NCBI GenBank assembly: GCA_013360745.1
Contig: JABWBA010000010.1
Location: forward strand, 646-64,645
Direction of reading: 5' to 3'
DNA from: Chthonomonadales bacterium
GTDB lineage: Bacteria; Armatimonadota; Chthonomonadetes; Chthonomonadales; CAJBBX01
DNA length: 64,000 nucleotides
Part shown: positions 20,863-26,389 of the stretch, piece after piece
Layout: each line of letters starts with the position of its first letter
Position numbering within the stretch: the first letter of the stretch is position 1
The notes under the pieces: generated by a model
Database searches by the model: none
What the model saw: the letters and a program-made list of their open reading frames with translations, nothing else
What the model was told of the DNA's origin: nothing
Position numbers and translations under genes: made by a program

Positions 20863-22485
20863 CTATGGATGGGCCTGACCGGGCGCCGGCGTGGAGGCCT
20901 GGGACGTGGGCCCGCCGAACCGATACCTCGGCGTGCCGCCCTCAGCAGGACGGGCGCCGAAGGCCAGCAGGGTCGTCGCCAGAGCAAACAGACAGCACAG
21001 GACGCCGGCGACCCCGCCCAGCAGACAGCGGCGCCCCAACGGCGGCTTCCAGTTCGGCTCCGCGACAGCCGGAGGATCGACCGCGTGGGCGCCGGTCCAG
21101 AGTACTACGAGAACCGTGGTCCAACACGCGTTGATGAGGATGACCCCTTCCGTGATCAGCCGCTGTTCGGCGAACGCAACGATGGCGCGCTCGAAGTTCA
21201 TCGCGACCGAGGCGGCCAGCGTGCCGAGAAAGAGCGCCTGCCCTTTGCCCGCCCAGCTGGACGGGATCAGCGGGACGGGGCGCTTCAGATGGCGCACCAT
21301 GATCCACAGGAACGTCGCCGCAATGGCAGCCGAACCGATATTGAACCATGTGATCGTCGAGAACCAGTAGAGGGCAGGCGCGATGGCCTCCGCCTTGATC
21401 CATTCCTCGGGGTTCTTCCGGGCGTTGATGTAGGTCACGAACAGCGCGACGAACGCTGGGGCGAACCAGTCGGCCCAGCGTCGCAAAGGCGGCTGATCGG
21501 TAACCTCGGGTGCATGGCGAGCGGCAAACGCCATGGCAAGGCCGATACCGAGGCCGTTGATCAGGCCGTAGGTCTGCTCCATGACGCTGTGCCAGTTGGC
21601 AGTCCAGCCGGTCCTGATCCACAGGAGCTTGATCGCCGTGGCCAGCGAGAATCCGATGCCGCCCATGAAGCCGCCGACCAGCATCGCGTGCGTAATGCCC
21701 GGGAGCCCTCGCCGCTGAAAGAAGACCGCCGCCCCGACGGCCATGCCGAGGCAACCCGCCCAGTTATCGCCCCGGGGCGGTGTCATCCGCCAATCCAGCA
21801 GGACCGGGAAGAGAAGAAAGCCGATCCACCATCCTATTGCCAGATGCAGCATCAGGCCCGTCGCTTCGTCGGATCGCCTGCGTACGAGGCGGTAGACGAG
21901 CGGGACGACGACCGCAATGAGGGCGGTCGTCCAGTCGGTATCGAACCAGTATAGGGCTTCCTCATGGCGCATTGCCGGGTCGCCATACGAGACGCCGAGG
22001 CCTCGGGCCGCGAGCCAGGCATTGAGGCCATCGTAGGTGAGGTCATGGATGGCCAGGACGGCGAAAAACCAGAGAAGCGGCGGAAGGAACTCCGTCAGCC
22101 GCTCACGGCTGAGATAGGCGGGCAGAGCCGTCCCCGCGCCTCCCAGCGCACCCCAGAGAAAGCCGATCAGCCAGAGAGCGGCGAAGCCGTAGAGGATGTT
22201 CGGCGGGTCGCCCGAATGCGTATAGGCGATCACGTGACCGTAGGACATCGAACCGCCGAAGCTCCAGCCAATGGCCCCGAACATGCCGAAGAAGGCTACG
22301 CGCCGATGCCAGTCCGGACGATCGATGGCCAGCACGACCGCCATGGCCGCGAGAGCACCCGGGATCATGGCCCCGTGCTCGTGGCCGAAGTTGCCCCGTA
22401 TGCCCCAGCCGATGGAGAGGGAGAGCGCCGGCAGGAGGAGAATGGGCCAGGACAGGAACGGCCGCCGAACCGATATTGCGCTCAT
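20863..22485 (-). CDS. Polytopic membrane protein of unknown function
   Basis: About 14 hydrophobic segments with polar motifs WGIRGNFGHEHG, DNWAG and NWHSVMEQ. Confidence 0.8.
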   Translation of the reverse strand: MSAISVRRPFLSWPILLLPALSLSIGWGIRGNFGHEHGAMIPGALAAMAVVLAIDRPDWHRRVAFFGMFGAIGWSFGGSMSYGHVIAYTHSGDPPNILYGFAALWLIGFLWGALGGAGTALPAYLSRERLTEFLPPLLWFFAVLAIHDLTYDGLNAWLAARGLGVSYGDPAMRHEEALYWFDTDWTTALIAVVVPLVYRLVRRRSDEATGLMLHLAIGWWIGFLLFPVLLDWRMTPPRGDNWAGCLGMAVGAAVFFQRRGLPGITHAMLVGGFMGGIGFSLATAIKLLWIRTGWTANWHSVMEQTYGLINGLGIGLAMAFAARHAPEVTDQPPLRRWADWFAPAFVALFVTYINARKNPEEWIKAEAIAPALYWFSTITWFNIGSAAIAATFLWIMVRHLKRPVPLIPSSWAGKGQALFLGTLAASVAMNFERAIVAFAEQRLITEGVILINACWTTVLVVLWTGAHAVDPPAVAEPNWKPPLGRRCLLGGVAGVLCCLFALATTLLAFGARPAEGGTPRYRFGGPTSQASTPAPGQAHP

Positions 22486-22522
22486 CAGACCTCCCGGAAG
22501 GCGTCGCCCTCAGCCAGCCCCA

Positions 22523-22823
22523 CCCGGCGGCTGAGCTTGTCGAAGCCCCGGTGGCTGAGCTTGTCGAAGCCGGGAGCCAAGAGCTAAGCGCCGAGTGCTG
22601 AGAGCTGGATCGTCGTAGGGGCAATTCATGAATTGCCCGTACCAGACCGGTCCGTCCTGAGCTTGTCGAAGCCCCGGTGGCTGAGCCTGTCGAAGCCGGG
22701 AGCCAAGAGCTAAGCGCCGAGAGCTGAGAGCTGCATCGTCGTAGGGGCAATTCATGAATTGCCCGTACCAGACCGGTCCGTCCTGAGCCTGTCGAAGCCC
22801 CGGTGGCTGAGCTTGTCGAAGCC
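22523..22823. repeat. Mosaic tandem array, period 126 bp, about 2.3 units
   Basis: CTGAGC(T/C)TGTCGAAGCC at 22531, 22555, 22657, 22681, 22783 and 22807. GTAGGGGCAATTCATGAATTGCCCGTAC at 22615 and 22741. Five degenerate GAGCTRA heptamers per unit. Confidence 0.95.
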
Positions 22824-22831
22824 GCCCCGGC

Positions 22832-24187
22832 TCAAATCTGGAACAGCTTCGCATAAAGAGCGTCGGTGCGGCCGCCGAGCGCCTCCAATCGTGCCGCCGC
22901 GTCGGGGTCGCCTCCCGCATGGAGCCGCATCAGGCGCCCCTCCTCGACGCAGAGCTCATCATGGGCGGGAAAGACCTCCCGCATCAAGAAGAGAGCGTAC
23001 TTCACCAGCCGGAACGGCCCGTAGGCGCGGGCGATCTGACCGGGGAGCGCCTCGACCGCGACCGACCATAGCTTCCGGATGCTCGTCGTCAGGTCGTCGA
23101 ACTCGAGGCGGCCCGAGAACACGATGGTGTAGTACCAGCCGAAGAGCTCACCCCGCTCGCACCCGTGCGCGTCGCTCACGCCGACGATCGGCACGGATCG
23201 GCCTCGCGCCCTCTCTTCGTGGTACCGGGCCACCTGCAGCGTATTGGAGTCGATCTCATGGAGATGGTAGCCGCCGATGAGCTCATACGCGTCGTAGGGC
23301 TGGGTTGCGAAGATGTGGGAGGTGAGGGCCCCGGCCGGCGCATAGCGGTGGCCGGTGAACCAGTAGGGATGGCAGAAGATGCCCAGGCCGCCGAACTCCC
23401 GGATTTTCGCGAGGGTCCAGACGGTCGAGGCGTATTGATAGGGGTCCACGCCCGGCGGCAGAGCCTGCTCACCCGACGACTGGTCCCTACCCGGCGGCTG
23501 AGCCATACCCGGCGGCTGAGCCTGTCGAAGCCGCTCCTCCAACGCCGCAACCTCAGCTCGATAGGCCTCCTCGTCGGCGAACAGCGCATTGACGCTGCGC
23601 CGACCGCCGAAGTTGACCATATGCACCGGGTTGCCGGGCGGATGGACCTCCTCGCCGGGGTACATGCGCAGGTCGCACCGTACGCCGTCGAACGCGGCGA
23701 TCGCCTCGAGCGAGGGCTCATACTGACGGTGATCGGTGAGGGCCATGAAGTCGAGCCCGATCGATCGGCAGGAGGCCGCCACGTAGGCGGGCGCTTCTCT
23801 TCCGTCGGATCGAGACGAGTGCATGTGCAGATCGCCCTTGTAAGGGAACCTGCCCGCCAGGTCGGGACCGACGGAATAGACGCGAAACTCTCCCAGACGG
23901 CGGCGCTGATCGCCCTGAACCGCCTCGAGGAGGAACACGTGCTCCTGCTCCCCCTCGAGGTACTGACGAAATCGGAGGCTGCGCCCATCGCGCACGACGG
24001 CCGGCTTGTTCGCCTCCGGCCAGCCGCTCTGCAGAGAGAACTCCTCCGTGGGATAGTAGGTGACCTCATACTCCACGCCATCGGTCACCGCGACGTGGTC
24101 GAACAGCGGGGTGACGGTGATCTCGACCGGAGTATCAGCCCGGGCGACGAGGGGATGGACGTCGAAGATCCGACCTTCAGGACGCAT
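22832..24187 (-). CDS. PHP-domain metallo-phosphoesterase
   Basis: GDLHMHSSRSDG, LTDH, GEEVH, CHPYW and GVSDAH motifs, RBS GGAGG. Confidence 0.9.
   Translation of the reverse strand: MRPEGRIFDVHPLVARADTPVEITVTPLFDHVAVTDGVEYEVTYYPTEEFSLQSGWPEANKPAVVRDGRSLRFRQYLEGEQEHVFLLEAVQGDQRRRLGEFRVYSVGPDLAGRFPYKGDLHMHSSRSDGREAPAYVAASCRSIGLDFMALTDHRQYEPSLEAIAAFDGVRCDLRMYPGEEVHPPGNPVHMVNFGGRRSVNALFADEEAYRAEVAALEERLRQAQPPGMAQPPGRDQSSGEQALPPGVDPYQYASTVWTLAKIREFGGLGIFCHPYWFTGHRYAPAGALTSHIFATQPYDAYELIGGYHLHEIDSNTLQVARYHEERARGRSVPIVGVSDAHGCERGELFGWYYTIVFSGRLEFDDLTTSIRKLWSVAVEALPGQIARAYGPFRLVKYALFLMREVFPAHDELCVEEGRLMRLHAGGDPDAAARLEALGGRTDALYAKLFQI
23490..23532. repeat. Copy and a half of the CCCGGCGGCTGAGCCTGTCGAAGCC element inside the PHP gene
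   Basis: CCCGGCGGCTGAGCCA followed by CCCGGCGGCTGAGCCTGTCGAAGCC. Translates as RLRQAQPPGMAQPPG. Confidence 0.9.
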
Positions 24188-26369: not shown

Positions 26370-26389
26370 GCGACAGGCTCAGCCGCCGG
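26370..26389. repeat. Degenerate, inverted-orientation copy of the GGCTGAGCCTGTCG element
   Basis: GCGACAGGCTCAGCCGCCGG is the reverse complement of CCGGCGGCTGAGCCTGTCGC. Confidence 0.75.

Follow-up and report, generated by a model that had tools for sequence, protein, structure and literature searches.

A strictly directional mosaic of a REP-type palindrome, heptamer repeats and a conserved-loop hairpin in the genome of a Chthonomonadales bacterium

The tandem array that lies between two genes of a Chthonomonadales bacterium is best explained, with a probability of roughly 55%, as a local tandem amplification of a diverged unit from a species-specific family of orphaned, REP-derived mosaic minisatellites. 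The array was found in a stretch of 64,000 nucleotides (the window, C72:646-64645) of a 127-contig MAG of 3.32 Mb with 63% GC and 97% completeness (G000). Its units combine a GTAG-footed palindrome (P), a second hairpin with an invariant loop (A), tracts of heptamers and short linkers. Within this lineage, P would have been joined to the heptamer microsatellites CTGAGAG and GCWAGAG, to a CCGGTGG linker and to hairpin A, in a unit that always runs head-to-tail. The family would have been seeded by RAYT-mediated single-strand transposition, and the RAYT, which is common in relatives, would subsequently have been lost from G000 or be missing from the MAG; since searches of G000 turned up no Y1 transposase, evidence for this seeding comes from other genomes only. 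Loss of the RAYT would have turned the elements into orphans, and the arrays would now evolve as minisatellites through slippage and recombination.

REPs and BIMEs of E. coli affect mRNA decay. By analogy, the hairpins of the array may block 3'-exonucleases or serve as processing sites and thereby uncouple the expression of the two genes.

Composition and setting of the array

Tandem Repeats Finder (TRF) recovered the array with a period of 126, 97% matches and a score of 560 (Table 1). Units are described here in the orientation that places GTAG on the + strand; both flanking genes are read from the - strand. The order within the unit is A, CCGGTGG, A, five heptamers, ATCGTC, P and CAGACCGGTCCGTC, and the core of the 28-bp P is a perfect 20-bp palindrome. 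An earlier, sequence-only reading had placed the starts of three units at 22531, 22657 and 22783 with few base differences between them, which direct reading and TRF bear out, units 1 and 2 differing at 3 bases. The window unit is a diverged variant of the genome-wide family, with two A copies, a post-P linker of its own and degenerate heptamers, divergent versions of the (CTGAGAG)n(GCWAGAG)m tracts seen elsewhere in the genome. A 22-nt heptamer segment, GAGCCAAGAGCTAAGCGCCGAG, was found at this locus only in a genome-wide search, which argues that the last amplification step was local, a tandem duplication of the whole composite unit. The number of copies is not an artefact of the present assembly, because an independent and more contiguous assembly (GCA_026646365.1, 456-kb contig) has the same 346-bp spacer with 100% identity, and because Logan contigs, built from the short reads of at least 18 runs, all end inside module A at both array edges, as expected of a real repeat. 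Sequences of the organism occur in at least 20 public runs, among them SRR22348921 and SRR33293570.

Table 1. Positions of the array, its parts and the neighbouring genes in the window
Feature	Position	Strand	Remarks
Downstream gene, 540-aa protein	20863-22485	-	ORF; ATG at 22485
Linker variant CCCGGCGG	22523-22530	+	ahead of first A; direct reading
Whole tandem array	22531-22824	+	2.3 copies of 126-bp composite unit; TRF and direct reading
Module A, CTGAGCYTGTCGAAGCC	starts 22531, 22555, 22657, 22681, 22783, 22807		copies paired 24 bp apart
Unit 1, A-linker-A	22531-22571	+	A 22531-22547; CCGGTGG; A 22555-22571
Unit 1, heptamers	22574-22608	+	five, degenerate; NNNAGAG register: CCAAGAG CTAAGCG CCGAGTG CTGAGAG
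Unit 1, P, GTAGGGGCAATTCATGAATTGCCCGTAC	22615-22642	+	GTAG-footed REP hairpin; preceded by ATCGTC
Unit 1, post-P linker CAGACCGGTCCGTC	22643-22656	+	locus-specific variant; usual form CAGCCCGGTGG
Unit 2	22657-22782	+	A 22657-22673; linker; A 22681-22697; heptamers 22700-22734; P 22741-22768; linker 22769-22782
Partial unit 3, A-linker-A	22783-22823	+	ends 8 nt short of upstream gene's stop codon
Upstream gene, 451-aa PHP-type metallohydrolase-like protein	22832-24187	-	ORF; stop codon 22832-22834
A+linker insertion in PHP gene	23465-23532	-	in-frame, 60 nt, 20 aa, QAQPPGMAQPPGRDQSSGEQ; A copy 23516-23532

The array fills a 346-bp spacer between two minus-strand ORFs, consistent with the earlier description of a spacer between co-oriented genes. 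The upstream protein has NCBIfam matches to CehA/McbA and PHP families below cut-off and shares 70-74% identity with orthologues in relatives; no family match was found for the downstream protein, which by its sequence resembles a multi-pass membrane protein. The downstream gene has a GGGAGG ribosome-binding site 5 nt ahead of its ATG. A scan of the spacer detected no promoter-like or terminator-like site, and since only 46 nt, ribosome-binding site included, separate the array from the downstream ATG, the array is probably co-transcribed within a 346-nt operon spacer. P was also considered as an intrinsic terminator and ruled out, as no T-run follows it. A structured ncRNA family is not indicated either, the whole unit showing no more predicted structure than shuffled sequence does (z = -0.9 for the + strand, -0.55 for the - strand) and an Rfam scan of 21500-24000 returning no family match at E <= 1. 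Elsewhere in the window, a degenerate reverse-oriented A+linker remnant (CGACAGGCTCAGCCGCCGG) lies at 26370-26389, in the divergent spacer upstream of a GH172 (DUF2961) gene.

Throughout G000, ~42 P copies (on 6 contigs), 63 A-core matches and 26 period-7 tracts (14 of AGAGCTG, 6 of AAGAGGC) were counted, period 7 being the dominant one among tandem periods that are not a multiple of 3, and these modules make up ~35 arrays with a combined length of 6.8 kb. When tokenised, the arrays follow a single grammar of linker, (CTGAGAG)n, (GCWAGAG)m, GCCCGTCGTC, P, CAGC, linker, A and linker, in which CC(C)GGTGG is the canonical linker between modules and CGTCGTC stands between (GCWAGAG)m and P. Every P-bearing array lies between genes, whether these are convergent, divergent or in tandem, and either orientation occurs; a few A-only (24-bp period) or heptamer-only tracts sit within called ORFs. 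A pure heptamer tract of ~26 CTGAGAG/CTGAGGG copies without P or A, at C111:40068-40250, abuts a minus-strand ATG that is a possible gene start; a crude ORF caller places the same tract inside a 524-aa ORF. The concentration of 38 of the 42 P copies on C18, C66 and C91 (~7% of the genome), of which C18 and C66 adjoin according to sister-strain evidence, counts against the preferred explanation. Contamination was rejected as the source of the C18/C91 clustering, since tetranucleotide distances are typical of the genome.

The arrays share with the BIMEs of E. coli and its relatives the clustering of REP hairpins, the conserved non-palindromic linker motifs between them, a place in probably transcribed intergenic spacers and a copy number that varies between strains. 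However, BIMEs alternate the orientation of their palindromes, whereas adjacent P pairs in G000 have the same orientation in 20 cases and the opposite in 0, at a spacing of 77-148 bp, and in G000 heptamer microsatellites and another family of hairpins form part of the linkers. The earlier description of the array as BIME-like therefore stands for a mosaic with conserved linkers and falls short for alternation. BIMEs are further marked by the binding of IHF, DNA gyrase or Pol I and by stabilising upstream mRNA; the array may be BIME-like in function, by analogy, but it is not a BIME by structure. No inverted P pair occurs within 300 bp in G000, so the elements do not form a REPIN, in which an inverted REP pair makes up one long hairpin. 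Head-to-tail REP arrays or dimers have been described as rare (Di Nocera et al., 2013; PMC3733652), which weighs against the preferred explanation.

The palindrome and its link to RAYT transposases

As single-stranded DNA, P is predicted to fold at -9.6 kcal/mol (z = -5.0 against shuffled sequence). A GTAG 5' foot is present on one strand of all 42 G000 copies, and one stem position covaries, with an A-T pair in 24 copies, a G-C pair in 17 and a mispair in 4. The exact 20-mer GGGCAATTCATGAATTGCCC is found in at least 120 contigs of a species-genome collection, in which a random 20-mer would be expected ~0.5 times by our own estimate. Among the matches listed, more than 15 phyla are represented, including cyanobacteria, Chloroflexota, Omnitrophota, Planctomycetota, Nitrospirota, Patescibacteria, Deltaproteobacteria, Bacteroidota and Spirochaetota; in the same matches, P outside G000 is nearly always a symmetric GTAG...CTAC 28-mer and often caps a longer inverted repeat peculiar to its locus. 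In Nostoc, MITE-like elements that end in GGACTTACGCAAA have P in the middle. Literature searches with the exact P and A sequences returned unrelated primer matches only.

The sequence-only reading had taken the GTAG palindrome for a REP of the RAYT type, and this identification is strengthened by the genes that accompany the same palindrome elsewhere. In L103 (Anaerolineaceae), a 183-aa gene that has the motifs PNHFH, WQRNYYEH and YIESNP and a Pfam Y1_Tnp match above cut-off contains it in frame, with a second P copy 330 bp upstream; L101, L023 and L032 likewise have Y1_Tnp genes at or adjoining P. GTAG 'double-foot' REPs accompany subclass-2.4 TnpA_REP / group-4 RAYT transposases (Quentin et al., 2018; PMC6006769), and the motifs NH[FVI]H, WQRNYYEH and YIxxNP of the P-linked RAYTs, together with REPs within the gene, fit this subclass. 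Judged by its sequence, P is thus a GTAG 'double-foot' REP of the subclass-2.4 RAYT (Y1 HUH) type. It has the short palindromic stem-loop of 20-40 bp, the GT[AG]G foot and the many dispersed, mostly extragenic copies of GTAG-type REPs, and it resembles the double-foot REPs described previously in its 5' foot, its stable hairpin, the complementary CTAC foot that the identical palindrome bears in other genomes and the existence of intragenic in-frame copies (PMC6006769, PMC3733652). Unlike those REPs, the P of G000 is never single or an inverted dimer but always head-to-tail in a larger composite unit, most of its copies have a mutated 3' foot (GTAC instead of CTAC) and no RAYT was detected in the genome. 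The GTAC foot makes the G000 copies asymmetric, unlike those of every other genome of the family. The association of one exact 28-bp REP, in more than 15 phyla among the matches listed, with one RAYT subclass argues for the joint horizontal spread of both.

RAYT genes are present in 16 of the 24 genomes of the bacterial family, with two copies in the same-genus genome G001, and GTAGGGGC...GCCCCTAC hairpins with varying but self-complementary inner stems occur in 16 of 24 family genomes at 1-15 sites each. A decayed RAYT was observed in G017 (L002 1234-1534, G017:C181), where a long helicase-like ORF has at its 3' end the C-terminal half alone (WQRNYSEH, YIVNSP), joined directly to a canonical palindrome, GTAGGGGCAATTCATGAATTGCCCCTAC. 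G000 has the most P-type hairpins of its family, and the earlier statement that the window lacks a RAYT holds but was drawn too narrowly, since none was found in the whole 97%-complete genome either. A six-frame Pfam search of G000 found no Y1_Tnp, tblastn with the L103 protein found no RAYT match, tblastn with seven family RAYTs found none (best E = 0.055) and a further sequence search across the family genomes recovered neither a RAYT nor a relic in G000. All seven of the other genomes of the phylum that were tested with Pfam contain Y1_Tnp genes. A resident RAYT gene between its cognate REPs, the mark of a REPtron, was thus not found in G000, but such an association exists for the identical palindrome in L103, L101, L023 and L032.

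These results bear on an alternative in which a classical REP-RAYT system is still active, its cognate RAYT being carried on an unbinned small contig or plasmid or acting in trans, with tandem growth as a secondary effect. This explanation is unlikely, although it survives better than the remaining alternatives. The 23 P copies of G000 that are identical across 28 bp fit recent activity better than long orphanhood, but gene conversion could have made them alike as well, and the mutated 3' foot of most copies speaks against this alternative. A small RAYT contig could be missing from a 127-contig MAG that is just 97% complete, RAYTs occur in the same genus, and a sister strain has additional array-flanked DNA that is absent from G000. 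However, four independent searches found no RAYT or relic, and the arrays are otherwise assembled through, the sole array-caused contig break (C18 start/C66 start) being bridged in the sister strain by an array of ~170 bp with no gene. None of 11 sister-strain metagenome loci, covering ~80 kb around arrays, encodes a RAYT. The orphaned minisatellite family remains the preferred explanation.

Two further features were noted on C91. At the edge of one array (C91:48572-48600) stands a different canonical double-foot hairpin, GTAGGGGCCGTTCAAGAATGACCCCTAC, and the terminal members of two C91 arrays are symmetric CTAC-footed P copies. These elements may be founder copies.

Separate distributions of hairpin A and the heptamers

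The sequence-only reading had proposed that modules of different origin were combined, and the three separate distributions of the modules support separate origins. The hairpin formed by module A is weak (z = -2.2); its 13-nt loop (TGAGCYTGTCGAA) does not vary, while the stems differ yet stay complementary: GGC/GCC in G000, G015, G019 and G022, GCTGCC/GGCAGC and GGCGGC/GCCGCC in G009, and TCC/GGA in one deltaproteobacterial and one patescibacterial contig. The A 14-mer is present in 41 of 151 sampled genomes of the phylum and occurs in bursts in unrelated families (87 copies in G102, 77 in G065 and 63 in G000, with 19 and 14 in others), while a reversed-pattern control never exceeded 2 copies per genome. 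In G102 and G065 (L189-L194), the loop lies inside GTAG-headed hairpins at 77-87 copies per genome, with the structure GTAGGGGC-loop-GCCC in G102 and GTAGGGCGGGG...CCCCGCC in G065, so that each of these chimeric hairpins joins a P-type foot to the A loop. From such sequences, A is REP-like too, but with a distribution of its own. A subclass-2.4 query found no match in the A-rich genomes G065, G102 and G089, all of which contain other Y1_Tnp genes, so that independence of module A from RAYTs cannot be claimed in general.

Heptamer tracts accompany P in other phyla at 5 of 116 loci (4.3%) compared with 24 of 2124 controls (1.1%), a modest enrichment of ~4-fold. In the control windows of the cross-phylum loci L011-L130, period-7 tandem repeats are 6-20 times commoner than those of period 5, 6 or 8-11. 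Heptameric tandem repeats are known from other bacteria, such as the TAACTGA repeats of Beggiatoaceae (PMC4679880) and those of Xanthomonas and Nostoc (PMC4692102). The tracts of G000 agree with the STRR/heptamer repeats of cyanobacteria and others in being intergenic 7-bp tandem tracts of variable number, with period 7 dominant in G000 and in cross-phylum P loci, but they differ in sequence (CTGAGAG, GCWAGAG) and in being coupled, in a fixed order, to a REP and a second hairpin.

The small dispersed repeats (SDR) of Nostoc are reportedly very short conserved modules that are nested in other repeats. These cyanobacterial repeats are not known to be linked with RAYTs. P in other phyla and the A loop are similar to them in nesting in repeats, hairpin tips and heptamer tracts, although P, unlike SDRs, is tied to RAYTs in other genomes.

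It is conceivable, but doubtful, that P, the A-loop hairpin and the heptamers are three classes of ultra-small modules that are spread across phyla and, needing no resident transposase, form mosaics specific to each species. That the largest P population of the family occurs in a genome in which no Y1 HUH enzyme was found, that the A loop is invariant on covarying stems and that its copies have burst in unrelated families are compatible with such a view, which, if true, would imply an unrecognised route of mobilisation, either recognition of the 13-nt loop or the GTAG foot by a trans-acting enzyme encoded on mobile DNA, or the recombination of taken-up DNA. A stricter version, in which P, the A loop and the heptamers are RAYT-independent mobile modules comparable to Nostoc SDRs that an unknown but widespread mechanism nests in hairpin tips and heptamer tracts, the mosaic being a by-product, is improbable. 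It would account for a loop that stays invariant on differing stems, for the position of P at the tips of locus-specific longer hairpins and for A+linker inserts that come without P, but no candidate mobiliser was found, the other A-rich genomes all carry Y1_Tnp genes, the A loop of G065 and G102 lies in REP-like contexts and the enrichment of heptamers near P in other phyla is only ~4-fold. Compared with these alternatives, the REP-derived family of orphaned minisatellites is preferred. The fixed coupling of heptamers to a REP and a second conserved-loop hairpin was not found in the searchable literature.

Turnover between strains and consequences for genes

The arrays were compared one by one, at 12 loci, with metagenome contigs of strains that are 97-99% identical to G000, and all 12 differ between strains while their flanks match. 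The differences comprise the gain or loss of whole units (P units 2 vs 1, 3 vs 4, 5 vs 4 and 4 vs 3), changes in heptamer number (e.g., -7 bp), a 147-bp heptamer-P-linker-A block, present or lacking between a pair of A copies, and the exchange of segment variants for those that characterise other loci, a sign of probable conversion from one array to another. Such hypervariability suggests that change is driven at present by replication slippage, unequal recombination and gene conversion. The earlier proposal of a non-autonomous element is supported by the dispersal of the family, but change at present takes the form of unit gain and loss and of recombination.

Pieces of the unit have also entered two genes in frame since the split from the sister species, as judged from orthologue comparison. 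The insertion in the PHP gene (Table 1) is missing from three orthologues, that of the same-genus genome included, and a ~47-aa (ELVEAPVA)n insertion with the 24-bp period of A+linker (C18:8046-8170, in ORF C18:7021-9567), in a glycosidase-like protein, is absent from the G001 orthologue and shows a 39-bp copy-number difference in a sister strain. These inserts recall Rickettsia palindromic elements (RPE) and intragenic REPs, in which in-frame repeat pieces add peptides, but they consist of A+linker rather than P, have a 24-bp period and vary in copy number between strains.

The composite unit has no match at all in G001. In conserved two-gene blocks, the G001 junctions measure 30 and 54 bp, compared with ~490 and ~930 bp with arrays in G000. 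In an empty-site test, the array-flanking genes proved not to be syntenic in G001. In a synteny control with 12 random adjacent gene pairs, 3 of 8 evaluable pairs were conserved against 0 of ~5 array-flanking pairs; this difference is not significant, and hence no claim is made that arrays mark breakpoints. In a sister strain, a 5354-bp contig (L153, JAANMX010009090.1) carries a type II CRISPR-Cas locus (Cas9, Cas1, Cas2 and repeat array) that is bounded at both ends by the mosaic arrays in inverted orientation, its interior being absent from G000. The G000 array at C106:39888-40017 has an odd inverted A-A junction, where the sister strain has additional + oriented units, and the CRISPR-Cas island of L153 may sit at this C106 locus.

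Several arrays end 10-35 nt from TATACT/TATAGT boxes that lie upstream of gene starts (C18:17168-17200, C18:29401-29440, C91:24300-24320 and C91:28815-28835), the two C91 sites having a common longer motif, AGTATAGTGCGCGC. Arrays may abut promoters at such sites, and changes in heptamer number may then alter the upstream promoter context. On another view, the elements would be kept by host selection, as protein docking sites or insulators, as mRNA stabilisers or as phase-variable spacers that tune their neighbours through heptamer number. The proximity to these boxes, the high conservation of P and A among copies against heptamer numbers that vary by strain, and the position of the window array in a probable operon spacer with no promoter or terminator of its own would suit such roles. 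Nevertheless, spacers of all types are occupied in either orientation, the same-genus genome does without the arrays at matching junctions, and neither the fold of the whole unit nor the Rfam scan points to a functional RNA, so that host-selected function is a poor explanation of the family. Neither a merely local duplication nor an assembly error limited to the window spacer can explain the array in full, as the genome-wide count of the modules places them in ~35 dispersed arrays and an independent assembly has the identical spacer, even if the locus-specific GAGCCAAGAGCTAAGCGCCGAG shows the last amplification step to have been local.

On the preferred reading of an orphaned, REP-derived family of minisatellites, the largest REP population of the bacterial family is found where the enzyme is apparently absent, which provides a natural test of what becomes of REPs once orphaned. 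The array family of G000 is a fast-changing relative of REP/BIME repeats, unusual in that searches of the genome sequence found no gene for the enzyme presumed to move it. As the unit differs at every compared locus in strains that are 97-99% identical, it can serve as a strain marker and is a possible source of expression variation, and pieces of the unit that enter genes in frame lengthen proteins. Repeats of the REP/BIME type belong to the longest-standing puzzles of bacterial genomes. These findings leave what is known of REPs unchanged, and the family offers a tractable system for studying how mosaics form and spread.
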